A DNA stretch of 13,853 nucleotides, taken from assembly GCA_025965875.1 (NCBI GenBank), contig JAOPWD010000338.1, positions 1 through 13,853 of the forward strand, in the 5' to 3' direction. The notes below the pieces were generated by a model, which ran no database searches, had not been told where the DNA came from, and worked only from the letters and a program-made list of their open reading frames with translations. The DNA comes from Pseudonocardiales bacterium (GTDB taxonomy: Bacteria > Actinomycetota > Actinomycetes > Mycobacteriales > Jatrophihabitantaceae). This document shows positions 70 to 10,022 of the stretch, piece after piece. A program made the position numbers and the translations under genes. How positions within the stretch are numbered: the stretch's first letter is position 1; each line of letters starts with the position of its first letter.

Positions 70-111
70 TGAGCGTCTGGACTTGTATTGAGTAATACGG
101 CGACGGGTTAC
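70..111 (-). promoter_or_regulatory. Copy 4 of the conserved GTAACCC-N7-TATT promoter-like module, oriented leftward (its target gene would start at or beyond the window's left edge)
   Basis: The reverse complement of 70-111 reads GTAACCCgtcgccgTATTACTCAATACAAGTCCAGACGCTC. This nearly matches the site at 7336-7376 (GTAACCCgccgctcTATTAGTCAGTACAAGTCCAGATGCTC) over about 40 nt. Confidence 0.45.
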
Positions 112-1549: not shown

Positions 1550-2093
1550 ACCACGGCAGCCGGCGCTGAGTTCCAGTTCGCCTGCGGCTGCGTGTCACCG
1601 GTGCGGGCGGAGCCTGCGCGCATCAGCTCAACGGTGTCGGGTCTTGAGTTCGCGGCGGAGACCGCCTGCGCCCGTCGAGCCGAGGACATCCCGACGATCA
1701 TCGCGACCTGATCGTGATCAGAGTGGCCTCGACAATCAAGGCCAGGGTGCCCACCCAGTCGGAGGCACTGGAAGCAATAGGCGTCGCCGCGGCAGCTGTC
1801 CGGCGGCGCGTCGGCCCGCTCGGGCCGCCACTGGCCATGGCGATGACCATTGCCAGCGAACTACTGCACCCACTGCGCACATGATCAACGCGACCCGCCG
1901 CGGAACAACTCTGCGCTGAATCCATCGACAACGTGATGACGACGGCGACGCCGTGCGCACGAAGGCGTTTGTCACCGCTGGCGAGCCGCGGCCCCATCAT
2001 CACACTGTCGCCGTCGTCGTCACCGTGCCGCCCGATTCGCCCGACCTTCGTCCTCACACTGAACGTCGCCGTCGTCCTCATCCAGCGTGTCGG

Positions 2094-2708
2094 TCAGCAG
2101 TGGCGAGTAGGCCCGATACGCCATCCAAGGTCGGTGCTCTCGGGCTGGGTGGTGACGGCGATTAGCGGTGCGCGCCACAACGATCGTGGCTGGGCGTTGG
2201 CGTCCGAGTCTCCGGTCGCCCGCATGGTGGCCCGTAGCAACCTTGTCGAGATCGCCGCGAGGACGATTGCAATGGGAATCTCGCCGAACAGCGCGGTCAC
2301 GCTGCTCACGAGAAGGTCGCCGCCGCGATGCGCGGTAAGCAGGTCGAACCACGCGTCGCACATCAACAGCACGCTCGTGACCATCGCTGCCGGCAAGGCG
2401 ATTTGGCGCTGCTTCCACAGCGCCCATGCGGTGACCGAGAAGCAGCCGATGAGCACGACATCGAACCCGGTCCAGGTGAGCGTCCACGTGCCGACCACGT
2501 AGCGCTGCGGCAGCGTCGCGGCCAGTCCTACCGTCCACGGAATCATGCTGACGGCACAGGCCAGGAAGAAGAGCACTGTTCGACGGCGAGTAGCGACGCC
2601 GGGTTGGCCGGCTGGCTTTGCTCGCGGTACCGGGGCTGCACCGCGAGAGGGCCGCGACGGTTCGCTGCGGCTCCCTCGCAGCGTTGTGCTTGTGCTGCTC
2701 GCAGCCAT
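2094..2708 (-). CDS. Hypothetical integral membrane protein (about 4 predicted TM helices)
   Basis: ORF with four hydrophobic stretches (VLFFLACAVSMIPWTVGLAA; FDVVLIGCFSVTAWALW; AAMVTSVLLMCDAWFDLL; LFGEIPIAIVLAAISTRLL). GC3 is high from about codon 45 onward, so the true start may be GTG 2576 or ATG 2546 rather than 2708. No family recognised. Confidence 0.55.
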   Translation of the reverse strand: MAASSTSTTLRGSRSEPSRPSRGAAPVPRAKPAGQPGVATRRRTVLFFLACAVSMIPWTVGLAATLPQRYVVGTWTLTWTGFDVVLIGCFSVTAWALWKQRQIALPAAMVTSVLLMCDAWFDLLTAHRGGDLLVSSVTALFGEIPIAIVLAAISTRLLRATMRATGDSDANAQPRSLWRAPLIAVTTQPESTDLGWRIGPTRHC

Positions 2709-2966
2709 CTCGTCTGCCTCTCAGGTGTCCTGTTCGCGGGGGTCAGTAGCCGTAGCTCGTGCCGGGCGTGGTGGTCGCGCACGGTGCATCGATAGATAGG
2801 GCCTCGCGTTACATCGACGATTTAGCAGGCAGGAGTTGGCACGCGGGTAGTTCGTGTATCTCCGTCGCGTATCTGTCCACGACGGCTCACCGGAGTCGCT
2901 GGCGTCCCGGACTTTGGCGGGACGCGCCCCTCGCTCGGCGTCGCCACGCCTCGAAGGAGAAACATC

Positions 2967-3572
2967 ATGACGACGGACACCTCCGCTGTTCGGGCAGCAA
3001 AGCCCGACCAGTCCGCTGTGCCCGTCGGCGACTGGCGCGTCGACCCGGTGCGATCGCACGCATCGTTTACGGCACGCGTCGCCGGCAGGTCTGTTCGGGG
3101 TCGGTTGCCCTTGAGCGGAGCAGCGATCGTGACCGCTTCGGTCGAGGACTCAGCAGCACATCTGACTGCCATGACCAGCGAGGTGAGCACTGGGAATCGC
3201 ATGCTTGACCGGCTGCTCGCCGGTCCTGGCTTCCTAGACGTCGAGGATCACCCGGAGATCAACTTCCGGACGCAGATGCTGGTCTGCGTCCCGACCGGGT
3301 GGAGGGCCATCGGACACCTGCAGGTCAAGGGAACCGACCACCCGATCGTGTGTGAGCTCGACGCCGACCTGCGCCACCCGAAACCAGGAGAGGCTGGGGT
3401 GACGCTCACTGGCCGGTGGGTACTTGACTCGACCTGGATCACCAGCCAACGGATTCCGGCGATGTCCCGCCGCGTCGCCATGAGCTGCTCGGTCGTCCTC
3501 GACCGCGCGATCGAGGTCGCTGACAGCGAACTCGCATCTGCGCATAGATGGCTTTGCCGCAGATGCGACTAG
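2967..3572 (+). CDS. YceI-like family protein (polyisoprenoid-binding beta-barrel)
   Basis: SD GAAGGAG lies 6 nt upstream of the ATG. The translation carries the YceI signature: W.VDP..S...F......G..V.G......A....S..TG....D..L.....FLDVEDHPEI.F. Confidence 0.8.
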   Translation: MTTDTSAVRAAKPDQSAVPVGDWRVDPVRSHASFTARVAGRSVRGRLPLSGAAIVTASVEDSAAHLTAMTSEVSTGNRMLDRLLAGPGFLDVEDHPEINFRTQMLVCVPTGWRAIGHLQVKGTDHPIVCELDADLRHPKPGEAGVTLTGRWVLDSTWITSQRIPAMSRRVAMSCSVVLDRAIEVADSELASAHRWLCRRCD

Positions 3573-3988
3573 GGCATCGCCGAATGCTCGGGGCGGGGGC
3601 CGCTGGCAGTGACCCCTCCGGACAGCGCCCGACGGGCACCGCGACGTCCGATCATCGAACTGAGCCGGCCGAGCAGTCGGACGGAAGACCTGAGGATCCG
3701 GTCATTCGGCGGTGCTGGCGGGCGTTTCACAGTCTGACCCAGCTTGGCTTTCCGCGGCGCTTTCCGATCGTTCAGTTCCCGAACGTCCCGCTCCTGACGG
3801 CCTGGATCGCTGGCTGGGCTCAGCACTTCGTAGCCGCAGCTGGCCGTCCGTACCTGACCTCGGTGGTCTATCTGGCGATGACCGTGTGGGCCTACGAAGA
3901 ACTTGTCCACGGCTCCAACTGGCTCCGTCAGCTGCTCGGCGGTGCGTTCATGATCATCCTTACGGTCCGGGTTGCGTACGCCGTGTGA
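3548..3988 (+). CDS. Possible small membrane protein (start uncertain; only the C-terminal roughly 90 aa shows strong coding bias)
   Basis: High GC3 and hydrophobic segments (LLTAWIAGWAQHFVAAAG; LTSVVYLAMTVWAYEEL; LLGGAFMIILTVRVAYAV) in the 3' half. The N-terminal third has weaker GC3, so the start is probably internal. Confidence 0.35.
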   Translation: MALPQMRLGHRRMLGAGAAGSDPSGQRPTGTATSDHRTEPAEQSDGRPEDPVIRRCWRAFHSLTQLGFPRRFPIVQFPNVPLLTAWIAGWAQHFVAAAGRPYLTSVVYLAMTVWAYEELVHGSNWLRQLLGGAFMIILTVRVAYAV

Positions 3989-4074
3989 GGTCAACAATGA
4001 CGAGTGAGTTCGATCTGTCGCGGCGTGTAGCCATGCCGCGAGCAACGTGTCTTGGACAGTGGTAGCCGTAACTT

Positions 4075-4459
4075 TTCGTGTCCGCTGCCGGCCGTACAAG
4101 CCGCGAGCTTGGCGGCCCGCAGGTGGCCGACGTCGACGGAGCCGATGCTCTGGAGAATTGTCCGGTCCCGCCCTGGACGGTGAAGGTGCGAAGGCAACCG
4201 TCGAGCCGTCGTCGGCCTGAAGCATGCGTTTGACCGGGCCGTTGTAGTTGGGAACGTCAGCGTTCATGAACACCCAGGACGGGTTTCCGCGGTACGCGAC
4301 GATCTGGCCCAGGACCTGACCATCGGCGATTTGGAAGGTTCCGGTGCGCAGCGCGTTGAGGCCGCCTGACGCCCCGTATGACGTACTTCGTCGCACTCCC
4401 GGTCTCCCGGCGCGGGCACGCTGACGGGCACCGCCGCGGTTGACCGCGACTTCCTGCAC
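4075..4459 (-). pseudogene. Decayed paralogous fragment of the anti-sigma factor's C-terminal extracytoplasmic domain (frameshifted)
   Basis: Minus-frame translations show LNALRTGTFQIADGQVLGQIVAYRGNPSWVFMNADVPNYNGPVKRMLQADDGSTVAF (frame A) and SIGSVDVGHLRAAKLAAC (frame B). Both match DALRTGTFLTDDGQVLGQIVAYRGSPSWVFMNVAVPNYNGKVKCMLQVDDGSTVAF...SIGSVDVGHLRGAKLV of the 260-931 gene. The DNA aligns at about 80% to 300-560 with at least two 1-nt deletions (for example cttggcgaa versus ctggagaa). Confidence 0.7.
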
Positions 4460-4548
4460 ACCTCTCGTTCATCGTGATCCCGATCGAAGACGGATGAGAT
4501 CGGCGAGTCATGCAGTGCTGGCGAGCTATCGGCCAAACCAATGCGAGG

Positions 4549-4590
4549 AGTTACGCCGCGTAACCCGCGGCCGTATTAGTCAGCGAACAC
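4549..4590 (+). promoter_or_regulatory. Copy 1 of the GTAACCC-N7-TATTAGTCAG module upstream of the PAP2-like gene, overlapped by a 15-bp palindrome GTTACGCcGCGTAAC (4549-4563)
   Basis: GTAACCC at 4560-4566 and TATTAGTCAG at 4574-4583; the ATG is 80 nt downstream of GTAACC. The palindrome was verified base by base. Confidence 0.5.
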
Positions 4591-4639
4591 CAAGCGAGTT
4601 GCCACCTGTCTCCTATCCACAGCACAGAAAAGAGGACGC

Positions 4640-5953
4640 ATGCGCACAAGGACAAGAGCCCTCACCGGGCTCGCCGCCGCGGTGCTCGTCGGAACCACCG
4701 GAACCGCCTACGCAGCCACTCAGGGCGGCCATCCGTCTCCGGGCAAGGCGACTGGGTCATCGGCCCACGGATCCGGGCAGTCGATCGTCGACTGGAACCG
4801 GGAGCTCATTACTCTGCTCGGTACGCCGGGCCTGCAACCGGCGACGATCCAACCGACCCGAAGTTTCGCGATCCTGCAGGCGGCTGAGTACGACGCTGTG
4901 GTCTCCACGACACACATTGGCCAGCCGTACCTGTTCAAGGTGCCGGCGCCGCGCGACGCGCGAGCGGACGCGGCCGCCGACCAGGCAGCGCACGACGTAT
5001 TGACGGCGCTCTACCCGGCGGCTACGAGCCGCATCGACCAGCAACTCAGCACCGAACTCGCAGCGATCCCAGACAGCCATGGCAAACGCGACGGGCGCCG
5101 TGCCGGCGCGACGGTGGCACAGCTCCTCGTCGACCTACGGGCCTTCGACGGGTCCGCGGCGCCCCCGCCGCCGTTCGTCGCCGGCACCCAGCCGGGCGAC
5201 TACCGGCCGACACCGCCGAACTTCCCGACACCGGTCTTCACCGCCTGGGGCTCGATCACACCGTTCCTGCTCACCAGCGGTTCCCAGTTCCGTCCGACCG
5301 CGCCTGCGCCGGTGAGCAGCCCGACCTACGCCACCGCCCTGAACCAGGTCAAGGCCCTCGGGCAAGACAGCAGCACCGTCCGTACGGCTGATCAGACGAC
5401 GGTGGCCAAATTCTGGGGCTCGGCACCGATCTGGAACACCTGGAACCAGATCGCGCAAACGTTGCTGACTGACCAACACGCCAACCTGCAGCGCGCCGCC
5501 ACTGTGTTCGCGAACCTCGACCTCTCCGTCGCAGACGCGACCATCGCGCTGTACGACGCCAAGTACGTCTACCACGTGTGGCGACCAGTGACCGCGATCC
5601 GGGCCGGAAACAGCGGCTACAACTCGGACATCGCCTTCGACCCCAACGCACCCACCTGGAACCCGTTGGCGGTCACCGCCGCCGATCCTTCCTACCCCGG
5701 CGCACACAGCACGATCAGTGCAGCGGCCGCAACCGTGCTCGTCGCGTCCTTCGGCAAGCACCAACCGATCACGGTGACGTCGGACAAGATGCCCGGTGTG
5801 GTCCGCACCTTCACCAACGTGCAAGCAGCGGCGGTCGAGGCAGGATTTAGCCGCATCCTCGCCGGCCAGCACACCGCCCTCGAGGACCAAGCCGGCCAGC
5901 AGCTCGGCCACCGGGTCGCCACGTTCGCACTGCATGAACTAAACGCGGGTTAG
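4640..5953 (+). CDS. Secreted PAP2-superfamily / vanadium-dependent haloperoxidase-like (acid phosphatase-like) protein
   Basis: SD AAGAGGA. N-terminal signal peptide (MRTRTRALTGLAAAVLVGTTGTAYAA). Three PAP2 motifs are present: K-x6-RP (KYVYHVWRP), a PSGH-equivalent (SYPGAHS) and SR-x5-H (SRILAGQHTALED). The roughly 250-aa N-terminal extension is typical of bacterial V-HPO-like proteins. Confidence 0.85.
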   Translation: MRTRTRALTGLAAAVLVGTTGTAYAATQGGHPSPGKATGSSAHGSGQSIVDWNRELITLLGTPGLQPATIQPTRSFAILQAAEYDAVVSTTHIGQPYLFKVPAPRDARADAAADQAAHDVLTALYPAATSRIDQQLSTELAAIPDSHGKRDGRRAGATVAQLLVDLRAFDGSAAPPPPFVAGTQPGDYRPTPPNFPTPVFTAWGSITPFLLTSGSQFRPTAPAPVSSPTYATALNQVKALGQDSSTVRTADQTTVAKFWGSAPIWNTWNQIAQTLLTDQHANLQRAATVFANLDLSVADATIALYDAKYVYHVWRPVTAIRAGNSGYNSDIAFDPNAPTWNPLAVTAADPSYPGAHSTISAAAATVLVASFGKHQPITVTSDKMPGVVRTFTNVQAAAVEAGFSRILAGQHTALEDQAGQQLGHRVATFALHELNAG

Positions 5954-7335: not shown

Positions 7336-7391
7336 GTAACCCGCCGCTCTATTAGTCAGTACAAGTCCAGATGCTCCGCTCCGAGCGGGCG
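7336..7391 (+). promoter_or_regulatory. Copy 3 of the GTAACCC-N7-TATTAGTCAG module plus a conserved leader, upstream of the Lipoprotein_15-like gene
   Basis: GTAACCC at 7336-7342 and TATTAGTCAG at 7350-7359. The following TACAAGTCCAGATGCTC is shared with the left-edge copy. The ATG is 94 nt downstream. Confidence 0.5.
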
Positions 7392-7429: not shown

Positions 7430-7957
7430 ATGATGATCAGAACCAAACGACTCCCGCTGTATGTCGCCGGCGGTGCTGGGCTCAGCGCGCTAGCGGTTCT
7501 CGGGCTCACGCTGAGCCAATCCGGCTCGAGTGCCGCCGGGGTGTCCGCGTCGCCGTCCTCGACCGTGGTTCAGACCCGCGCCAGCAACCTCGGGCAGATC
7601 CTCGTCGATGCCCAGGGCCGCACGATGTACCTGTTCGCCAAGGACACCGGCCCCGCCTCCACCTGCGTAGGCGCCTGCACGTCAGCCTGGCCACCGGTGC
7701 CAGTGTCGGCCGCGCCGCACGCCGCCGGCGGGGCGTCGGCTTCGGCACTCGGGGTGATCGGCTCGGGCAGTCGGCGGCAACTGAGCTACGCCGGGCACCC
7801 GGTGTACTACTTCGCCGGAGACAGCAAGGCCGGACAGACCCACGGCCAGGCGCTTAACGAGTTCGGCGCCAAATGGTACGTCCTGAACTCAGCAGGAGCC
7901 GCGATCGTCAAAGCCCCAAGCAACGCCGGCAACAGCGGCGGAGGGTACGGCTACTAG
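7430..7957 (+). CDS. Secreted protein with two copies of the Lipoprotein_15-type 'secreted repeat of unknown function' (COG4315-like)
   Basis: Signal peptide, no lipobox Cys. Two repeats are visible: LGQILVDAQGRTMYLFAKDTGPASTCVGACTSAWPPV and LSYAGHPVYYFAGDSKAGQTHGQALNEFGAKWYVL. A GAAGGA-like SD precedes the ATG. Confidence 0.8.
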   Translation: MMIRTKRLPLYVAGGAGLSALAVLGLTLSQSGSSAAGVSASPSSTVVQTRASNLGQILVDAQGRTMYLFAKDTGPASTCVGACTSAWPPVPVSAAPHAAGGASASALGVIGSGSRRQLSYAGHPVYYFAGDSKAGQTHGQALNEFGAKWYVLNSAGAAIVKAPSNAGNSGGGYGY

Positions 7958-8257: not shown

Positions 8258-9592
8258 ATGTTCGGATACCACGTTCCCGCTCCAGACGAAGCGATGCTGA
8301 TCTCGGGAGGCAAGGCCACAGCCTCCGACGCACCGTTCAGGGTGGTCACCGGACGAGGCGCCTACGTCACGCCAATGTTTCGCAAGGCCCGATTCATCAC
8401 CTTGTCCATGTCCGAAGCCGAGGTCGAAGAGAACTGCGTGACGAAACAGGGCATCGCGCTCAAGGTCAAAGCCGTCATCGCCTTCAAGGTGGGCAACGAC
8501 ACGGAGTCCATCGTCAACGCCTCGCAGCGATTCCTATCCGACCAGTCCCAGATGTCGGTACTGACCGGCCGGATCTTCTCCGGCCACCTTCGCTCGATCA
8601 TCGGCTCGATGACCGTCGAGGAGATCGTCACCGAGCGGCAGAAGCTCGCGTCCGAGGTGCTGGACGGATCCAAGGGAGAGATGGCCAAGATCGGTCTCAC
8701 GGTCGACGCGCTCCAGATCCAGTCCATCGACGACATGGGTCTCGGATACGTCGCGGCCATGGCAGCGCCGCACAACGCGGCTATCCAGCGAGCAGCAAAG
8801 GTCGCAGCCTCCCAGGCCGATCAAGCCGCCGCCGAGGCCCACCAGGCGTCCCTGCGAGCTCAGGCCGAATACGCCCGCCAAACCGAAGTAGTCCAAGCCC
8901 AATACGCGGCCGACGTGGAAGCAGCGAAGTCCGCGGCTGCAGCTACGGCGGCGGCCGCCGCCCAGGCGTCGGCTCGAAACCTTGCCAACTACGAGGCCGA
9001 GACCGCAGTCACCCGGTCCAAAGCTGCCCAGATAGCCGCCGAAGCACAGCAGGAATCCGACCGCAACCAGGCCGACTTCGCCCGCCAAACCGCGGTCGCC
9101 AAAGCCACGTTCGCAGCCGAAACCCAAGCGGCTCAAGCCAAAGCAGACCAATCAGGACCCCTCGCCCACGCCGTGGCGCAGCAGCAGGTAATCGACGCCC
9201 AAACGGGCCTAGCCCAGCAGGAGGCCGAACTGACTCGCCAAACGCTGGTCTCCACCGTCGTACGCCCGGCCGAAGCCGACGCGGAGAGAGTCAAGATCCT
9301 GGCCGCAGCCGACGCCGAGCGGACCAAGATCTTGGCCGAGGCGGCCCAGTCGCACAACCGCGTTGCACTCGATCAACAACTCATCGCCCAACTCCCGCTC
9401 ATCGTGGAGAAGGCCGCACAGGGTTTGGCCGGCTCCCACCTGACCGTGCTCAACGGATCTGAGGGAGTTACGGAAGTCGTGTCATCGCTGGTCGGTCAAG
9501 GTCTGGCCATCCTGGACTCGATCCGGCATGGCGTAGCCGGCTCGAGTTCATCCAATGGCCTCCGACCGACCTCGCCGGCAATCAAGGCATGA
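8258..9592 (+). CDS. Flotillin-like SPFH/band-7 domain protein with an Ala/Gln/Glu-rich coiled-coil C-terminus
   Basis: Strong SD AAGGAG 7 nt upstream. The N-terminal PDEAMLISGGK...YVTPMFRKARFITLSMSEAEVEENCVTKQGIALKVKAVIAFKV aligns to the flotillin (FloT/YuaG-like) SPFH domain. An in-frame stop 33 nt upstream means the usual N-terminal membrane hairpin is absent. The C-terminal EA-rich repeat region is typical of flotillins. Confidence 0.85.
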   Translation: MFGYHVPAPDEAMLISGGKATASDAPFRVVTGRGAYVTPMFRKARFITLSMSEAEVEENCVTKQGIALKVKAVIAFKVGNDTESIVNASQRFLSDQSQMSVLTGRIFSGHLRSIIGSMTVEEIVTERQKLASEVLDGSKGEMAKIGLTVDALQIQSIDDMGLGYVAAMAAPHNAAIQRAAKVAASQADQAAAEAHQASLRAQAEYARQTEVVQAQYAADVEAAKSAAAATAAAAAQASARNLANYEAETAVTRSKAAQIAAEAQQESDRNQADFARQTAVAKATFAAETQAAQAKADQSGPLAHAVAQQQVIDAQTGLAQQEAELTRQTLVSTVVRPAEADAERVKILAAADAERTKILAEAAQSHNRVALDQQLIAQLPLIVEKAAQGLAGSHLTVLNGSEGVTEVVSSLVGQGLAILDSIRHGVAGSSSSNGLRPTSPAIKA

Positions 9593-9689
9593 TCCTCGGC
9601 TGGTGCCCCCATGATCATCTTGACGCTGATGAGACCTGATTCCGTCGATATGACCGCGAGTTTCGTCGGCTCGCTCACCAGGGTGTGTG

Positions 9690-10022
9690 CGGAAGTACCA
9701 GCGCGAGGGCGAGGAGCGGCGTGGTGATCGAGCTTTGCCTGCAGCTTTGATCTGAACAACGCAGAGTTCGCGCGAACGGGACACGACTGCCTGCGCTTGG
9801 GCGCCGTCCGGGTCAACGGGTGCTTGCCGACCTCGCCGCGCTCCAGCGCGTACGTGACACCCCGAACAACAGGCCGTGGTAGTTCGCCTTCGTCTTCAAC
9901 GAACGCGGCCAGCCGATCAGCCACGCCTTGACATCGTCTTCACTCACCTGGTCGATCCGCGTATCGAATGGCCGATAGAGCCCGCCACGGCCCTGAACCT
10001 GCACGGCACGCAGCGTCCGCAA
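9690..10022 (-). pseudogene. Remnant of a tyrosine recombinase/phage-type integrase (N-terminal core-binding region only, frameshifted and truncated)
   Basis: The minus frame gives IDQVSEDDVKAWLIGWPRSLKTKANYHGLLFGV. After a +1 shift it continues as VTYALERGEVGKHPLTRTAPKRRQS. Together these follow the integrase N-terminal pattern (...V..W......SL.P.T.....LL..VL..A...G.I..NP......PK.RR). No catalytic domain follows. Local GC is lower than the surroundings. Confidence 0.5.

Follow-up and report, generated by a model that had tools for sequence, protein, structure and literature searches.

A decayed partial copy of an anti-sigma factor gene beside a PAP2-like gene in soil actinobacterial DNA

A short minus-strand segment at positions 4104-4356 of the window (the whole stretch of 13,853 nucleotides analyzed here) is very probably a non-functional remnant of the 3' part of an anti-sigma factor gene. 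It comprises about 84 codons, running from NALRTGTF to GHLRAAKL, and covers the C-terminal, extracytoplasmic (sensor) domain only; the start codon, the cytoplasmic domain and the membrane helix are all missing. By its sequence, the fragment comes from a lineage of the gene that we call type B, rather than from the intact, type A copy in the same window. It is located in a variable spacer between the sigma/anti-sigma region and a PAP2/vanadium-haloperoxidase-like (VCPO-like) gene at 4640-5953 (plus strand).

The window is high-GC actinobacterial metagenome DNA (66% GC), and its nearest named relative is a Jatrophihabitantaceae MAG, L007; other related contigs are also denoted by L numbers, and proteins by P numbers. 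Near its left end, on the minus strand, the window contains an ECF sigma factor gene (928-1521; Pfam Sigma70_r2 and r4_2, TIGR02937) whose stop overlaps the start of its partner, the intact type A anti-sigma gene (260-931; 223 aa, one transmembrane helix, weak NCBIfam anti-sigma matches). The sensor domain of the latter, at 263-561 on the same strand, is the in-window homologue of the fragment. Between the sigma gene and the fragment lie genes for a membrane protein of 204 residues (2094-2708, minus strand) and a YceI-like protein (2967-3572, plus strand), and a 146-codon ORF (3548-3988, plus strand). A TIGR03118 protein and a Lipoprotein_15 protein (7430-7957) are encoded in the same window, and for a neighboring protein of 134 residues an exact look-up gave no match.

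The fragment and its lesions

By local alignment and by blastn, 4104-4356 matches 307-561 with 217 of 255 columns identical (85.1%), two 1-nt gaps and an E value of 5.4e-79. The alignment score of 316 is far above background, as 200 dinucleotide shuffles gave a mean of 24 and a maximum of 39. An initial annotation of this DNA had proposed a frame-broken, decayed copy of the extracytoplasmic domain only, with at least two single-base deletions and with neither a sigma gene nor an N-terminal anti-sigma part beside it. All of this is borne out: the alignment contains exactly two 1-nt deletions, and searching the window by tblastn and blastn revealed no sigma relic and no N-terminal or transmembrane anti-sigma relic elsewhere in it. 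The homology had been placed at 4085-4360 against 300-560 with about 80% identity, which is close, the true block being slightly shorter and slightly more similar. Of the annotated interval 4075-4459, the part at 4357-4459 is not derived from an anti-sigma gene.

The first deletion, at 4150-4151, reduces TT to T (CTCTTGG in the parent, CTCTGG in the copy), and the second, at 4188-4189, reduces CC to C (GGTGCCGAAGG in the parent, GGTGCGAAGG in the copy). Thus, the sensor domain reads in three minus-strand frames, with ALRTGTFQIADGQVLGQIVAYRGNPSWVFMNADVPNYNGPVKRMLQADDGSTVAF in the first, TFTVQGGTGQFS in the second and SIGSVDVGHLRAAKL in the third. The first frameshift is specific to the window population, with CTCTTGG kept in L006, L086 and L087; the second is common to the window and L006 and is absent from L086 and L087.

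Both deletions shorten a 2-nt homopolymer, as might be expected if sequencing or assembly error had broken an intact small sensor-domain gene, or if the contig were chimeric. We give this explanation practically no weight. Both frameshifts are identical in six of six assemblies (the window and L001, L002, L005, L108 and L110), and the latter five, which come from other samples, align with 4040-4500 without gaps and with only 2-3 substitutions each. Because the same gaps are found in five contigs from different samples, the lesions are real rather than sequencing errors. Nor is there a start codon or signal peptide upstream from which a small gene could be read, and the two sides of the junction are each found in other contigs, one side in L007 and L085 and the fragment side in L006, L086 and L087.

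An ORF of 296 codons (3569-4459, minus strand) runs through the fragment and is antisense to the 146-codon gene. The part of it that lies beyond the relic shows no coding signature, with a GC3 of 0.65 versus 0.74-0.85 in real genes. This ORF is spurious, an artefact of high GC combined with an in-frame relic. In annotation it should be suppressed, along with any 'sensor-domain gene' call, or else marked as a pseudogene, and 4361-4639 should be described as the regulatory region of the PAP2 gene.

Orthologous fragments occupy the same place in L006, L086 and L087/L088, each with a different set of lesions. In addition to its two deletions, the window copy has Arg in place of a Cys that is invariant in the family (C167, alignment A3), and its last ~12 codons, stop codon and flank have been replaced. 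L006 has the 4188/4189 deletion in common with the window, plus a +1 insertion; it lacks the DNA corresponding to window 4245-4414 and keeps its own stop codon. L086 has no frameshift, but PSWVF has become QSSVF and the counterpart of 4330-4498 is gone. In L087/L088 there is a 1-nt deletion, a 21-nt tandem duplication, a change of the stop codon from TGA to TGG, and loss of the counterpart of 4295-4370. These deletions at the sister loci measure 76, 169 and 170 bp. Finally, L004 lacks 4050-4480 entirely (a 431-bp segment), which is kept in L110 from the same sample, 3300044816. As the deleted DNA is retained by the outgroups L007 and L085, the deletions are secondary losses, that in L004 included. 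Rather than an intact, different gene, which the initial annotation had envisaged as evidence against its proposal, the related genomes contain at this position the same fragment with other lesions, or nothing.

The four deletions cluster over the junction at 4357-4370, but by a rough estimate this is not statistically remarkable for deletions of such size in a dispensable interval of ~490 bp. Differences extend beyond the fragment: L087 lacks both the YceI gene and the 146-codon gene, L086 has truncated versions of the two, and L006 retains YceI next to a truncated 146-codon gene. These differing neighborhoods mark the spacer as a rearrangement hot spot.

Substitutions within the fragment can be compared with those in intact genes. 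Between intact genes dN/dS is 0.12-0.21, and among the fragment copies it is 0.64-1.8. The ratio between the neighboring type A gene and the fragment is also low (0.11-0.28), since the differences it measures arose mostly between two lineages that are both functional. When each derived change is counted once with type B as the reference, the fragment clade has 25 nonsynonymous and 14 synonymous events, a ratio of 0.63. For this small total of 39 events neutrality fits (p=0.20), and intact pairs differ (Fisher p=0.019 and 0.003). Two invariant residues are affected, Cys having become Arg in the window copy and the Trp of PSWVF having become Ser in L086 and L087. By these measures, the fragment appears to be decaying neutrally.

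Junctions, flanking DNA and the promoter motif

At the 3' side of the fragment, the window is rearranged at 4050-4103, where the last ~12 codons, the stop codon and the flank are missing. L006, L086 and L087 retain the 3' flank that the window has lost here, and in these three contigs the element at window 4059-4083 is found in the opposite orientation.

The 5' junction lies at 4357-4369. Here the minus-strand fragment meets, at its N-terminal end, the last 9 nt of an older sensor-domain relic that points the other way: GCCGCCTGA at 4361-4369 (plus strand) is the final 'AA-stop' of that relic. Related contigs retain more of it. In L007 it spans ~115 nt (9619-9735) and reads GTGQFSKTIGDVNVGHLRGAPLVTPP…(frameshift)…IATFAA-stop, also containing GHLRGAPLVTPP; in L085 only ~30 nt (about 9700-9735) are left, encoding IATFAA-stop. 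The plus-strand relic lies ~265 nt upstream of the PAP2 start codon and is ~37% diverged from all other copies, which marks it, judging from the sequence, as the older of two anti-sigma 3' ends captured at this spot. In-place inversion of this relic was considered as a source of the minus-strand fragment and rejected. L006 and L086 keep the fragment's own minus-strand stop codon and the window keeps the plus-strand AA-stop, so that two separate copies are needed.

To the right of the junction, 4361-4639 (plus strand) is the conserved upstream region of the PAP2/VCPO-like gene; it is not anti-sigma-derived and contains a promoter-like motif at 4560-4582. Window 4361-4700 is 89.6% identical to L007 and 91.3% identical to L085, and 1698-4360 has no counterpart in either. 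In L007 and L085 the sigma/anti-sigma operon is instead only ~0.55-0.65 kb from the conserved PAP2 upstream region, in divergent orientation. Divergence between the window and these two contigs is a mosaic, with dS of 0.11-0.16 for PAP2, 0.21 for the TIGR03118 gene and 0.39-0.45 for the sigma and anti-sigma genes; against L007 alone it is 0.16 for PAP2 and 0.45 for sigma. The switch falls at window position 4361. The mosaic makes recombination among these lineages plausible and suggests a recent exchange of the PAP2 cluster among them. A block duplication that took in the genes for the membrane protein, the lipoprotein and the anti-sigma and sigma factors has no support, and the data do not require one. 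In every window-type contig the gene at 2094-2708, which encodes the membrane protein, adjoins the sigma region, and it is only 73% identical to the L007 gene, with a dS of 1.1.

The fragment has its N-terminal side facing PAP2, in agreement with the arrangement in L007 and L085. It may be all that is left of a second sigma/anti-sigma operon formerly located beside PAP2 in the L007/L085 orientation, or it may have come with the inserted block at 1698-4360. Starting from the L007/L085 arrangement, a single deletion with one end within the anti-sigma gene and the other at the plus-strand relic would produce the right-hand junction seen in the window.

The motif upstream of PAP2 is one of three copies of a 23-nt sequence, GTAACCCGnnGCnnTATTAnTCA, of which none would be expected in the window by chance. 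The copy at 89-111 (minus strand) faces an off-window Lipoprotein_15 gene that can be seen in L108, among longer contigs of the same population, that at 4560-4582 (plus strand) is in front of the PAP2/VCPO-like gene, and that at 7336-7358 (plus strand) is in front of the second Lipoprotein_15 gene. It is conserved in L007, L085, L090 and L091, and is probably the target promoter of the ECF sigma factor encoded at 928-1521; no copy was found upstream of the sigma gene itself.

The initial annotation had the fragment abutting this promoter module and possibly marking where the module was copied. The first description is loose, as the motif at 4560-4582 is ~200 nt from the end of the homology, and the second is not supported. 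In L006, L086 and L087, homology to the 3' flank of the anti-sigma gene stops ~15 nt past the stop codon and never reaches the motif. When the spacers from stop codon to promoter at the three motif sites are aligned, they have only the 23-45-nt motif in common. Copying of the promoter together with the fragment was rejected on the evidence of both the spacers and the sister-locus flank. The PAP2 promoter region is also conserved in L007 and L085, both of which are without the minus-strand fragment.

The spacer upstream of the PAP2/VCPO-like gene might instead be a recurrent landing site for the 3' ends of anti-sigma genes, although we consider this unlikely. The clues are the minus-strand type B fragment in the window group and the older plus-strand relic, whose ATFAA-stop end has one common position in L007, L085 and the window. 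In another lineage, with contigs L093, L094 (1305-1922), L095 and L106, a VCPO/PAP2-like ORF runs directly into residues 19-99 of the sensor domain of an L007-type anti-sigma factor; this fusion retains the downstream promoter motif and has lost the sigma gene along with the anti-sigma N-terminal part. Such landings could arise if the promoter motifs of the sigma regulon, which are near-identical, recombine with one another; one copy of the motif is ~150 nt downstream of the anti-sigma stop and another upstream of PAP2. If so, recombination at the motif would move sigma/anti-sigma modules beside new targets or swap sensor domains, and the fragment would be a scar of that process.

Parentage and alternative explanations

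Scanning metagenomes, along with two protein searches, identified two contigs (L090 and L118) with intact genes whose sensor domains are 93-94% identical to the fragment at the nucleotide level. The type B protein in L118 is full length (P0023, 221 residues). That in L090 (P0102, 171 residues) has an in-frame deletion, bounded by two TDAL repeats, that removes the linker and membrane helix; comparison of L090 120-635 with L118 139-804 shows 50 residues lost. If real, this deletion would yield a soluble protein with the sigma-binding part fused to the outer domain. Type B is rare, as no other full-length protein in the collection searched exceeds 85% identity to P0023. It may be a paralogue within the same genomes or an allele that belongs to a different lineage. 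Stand-alone 'sensor proteins' of 135-140 residues from the first protein search were dismissed as anti-sigma genes cut at contig ends.

In L118, a tRNA-Arg(CCG) gene at 972-1044 lies ~170 nt past the type B anti-sigma stop and replaces the usual promoter motif and Lipoprotein_15 gene; by its position, this site appears to be another breakpoint at the 3' end of an anti-sigma gene. L089 has a frameshifted anti-sigma gene at the parental locus.

We placed the fragments in a neighbor-joining tree with pairwise deletion and bootstrapping. The four fragments (window, L006, L086 and L087) form one clade with 99.6% bootstrap, and they group with the type B genes of L090 and L118 with 98.6%, leaving the neighboring type A outside. 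Jukes-Cantor (JC) distances from the window fragment are 0.057-0.066 to type B and 0.162 to type A, and its dS is 0.077 to L090 versus 0.55 to the neighbor. The tree and dS values indicate that the fragment descends from a type B gene by one truncation, and is not a copy of the adjacent gene.

The initial annotation had favored an ancestral duplication of the sigma/anti-sigma locus, or of a sensor-domain gene, followed by decay, and a direct partial duplicate of 260-931 or of the local locus, decayed in place, does account for a fragment on the same strand and of the same family as its neighbor, 3.8 kb away and 85% identical to it. Types A and B are also weakly grouped against the L007 group (68% bootstrap), as would be possible after an old A/B duplication within the lineage. 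Even so, we find direct duplication very unlikely. In addition to the much closer match to L090 and L118 by both measures, the fragment is without the derived states that the neighbor shares with its orthologues, and it and the neighbor have no private derived states in common; the homology also leaves out the promoter and N-terminal parts. Conversion of the L090 and L118 genes by the fragment would be another route to their similarity, but their N-terminal and sigma parts are only ~83-88% identical to those of the window.

A type B fragment could nonetheless have been kept for a function, either as a silent donor cassette for gene conversion of the sensor domain or as a source of antisense RNA. 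In the latter version, transcripts of the 146-codon gene (3548-3988) are proposed to read through into the fragment and act against the anti-sigma mRNA. There is no terminator-like site between 3988 and the fragment, and RNA transcribed from the plus strand would match the anti-sigma mRNA for pairing at 85% identity, including perfect stretches of up to ~23 nt. Sensor-domain pieces recur beside PAP2/VCPO-like genes (the L007/L085 relic and the L093-L095 fusion), and the type B domain occurs in expressed-type genes elsewhere. Three further observations count against an inert remnant: L086 has an uninterrupted 70-codon ORF (P0012), the fragment has lasted in several lineages that differ by dS of ~0.05-0.12, and none of the six window-type assemblies has lost it. 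A retained function is nevertheless highly improbable given the neutral substitution pattern, disabling lesions that vary by strain, and four independent deletions, including complete loss in a co-occurring strain. The fragment is single-copy in the window and in each related locus, with no cassette array, and no conversion tracts link it to its neighbor. Scans of the fragment and its surroundings gave no Rfam match and no promoter-like or terminator-like site; the only terminator-like site scanned, at 4656-4672 (minus strand), is inside the PAP2 gene.

Silent-cassette systems that act by gene conversion include pilS/pilE in Neisseria and vls in Borrelia. The fragment resembles these cassettes in being a promoterless, 5'-truncated partial copy of a domain exposed at the cell surface, on the same strand as its expressed homologue and a few kb away. 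Unlike them, it is single-copy, frameshifted, neutrally decaying and deleted in some strains, and the type A anti-sigma gene has no mosaic tracts. Thirteen contigs encode an anti-sigma protein identical to the type A protein of the window; the identical protein is also encoded in MAGs GCA_032160325.1 and GCA_032160525.1, whose contigs exceed 99% nucleotide identity to the window. Type B genes differ from type A in the N-terminal and sigma parts too.

Neutral decay and repeated loss make inert DNA the best reading. A single truncation in the ancestor of the window, L006, L086 and L087 removed the start, the sigma-binding part and the membrane helix. Neutral drift has since brought frameshifts, an internal duplication, stop loss, changes at invariant residues, nested deletions and one full loss. 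The fragment would be an inert by-product of illegitimate recombination or deletion in a rearrangement-prone region.

Compared with bacterial gene remnants in general, the fragment differs in nothing essential. It has homology to a functional gene, has lost the start and N-terminal part, and contains frameshifts in short homopolymers; its dN/dS is near 1, its lesions differ in sister strains, and it is polymorphic for presence and absence. As far as sequence comparison can tell, then, it is a gene remnant by homology, real lesions, relaxed selection and dispensability. The unusual aspect is that its closest intact relative is a rarer allele, from two short metagenome contigs, rather than the neighboring paralogue. 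Gene remnants are well known as a kind, and the fragment itself carries no new biology. It does provide a small, clean case of pseudogene decay traced across co-occurring soil actinobacterial strains, in which one frameshift is shared and others are private, deletions are nested and the loss is in one case complete.

The parent anti-sigma family

The fragment also draws attention to an uncharacterized family of ECF anti-sigma factors with more than 500 members (531 homologues at E<=1e-3), and with at least two divergent sensor-domain alleles in closely related organisms. Among the 120 homologues listed, nearly all have 217-223 residues, and those named in the source are called 'hypothetical protein'. 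The parent matches no Pfam family: RskA_C reaches 16.3 bits versus a cut-off of 29.4, and is matched by only 2 of 50 family members. The NCBIfam anti-sigma model NF052375 gives 36 bits, below its cut-off of 100.

Like RskA of Mycobacterium and RsbN of Streptomyces, the anti-sigma gene at 260-931 overlaps an ECF sigma gene and encodes an N-terminal part in the cytoplasm, a single membrane helix and an outer domain at the C-terminus. A further similarity is that the best NCBIfam match of the sigma factor (928-1521) is the BldN family model, below its cut-off. Unlike RskA and RsbN, the parent reaches no curated family, and it has no sequence match among solved structures, RsbN included. In the AlphaFold2 prediction the ~100 residues at the C-terminus form an eight-strand beta sandwich with a pLDDT of 82-86. 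A Foldseek search with this domain gave nothing beyond matches to the Cu/Zn superoxide dismutase fold, all of them insignificant (E>=5e-3). Within the family, this outer domain has an invariant Cys and an invariant Trp.

In another part of the window, the Band_7/SPFH gene at 8258-9592 contains imperfect internal direct repeats at 8828-9120 and 9265-9330 (86 nt at 72% identity and 33 nt at 79%), which are probably repeated coiled-coil segments.
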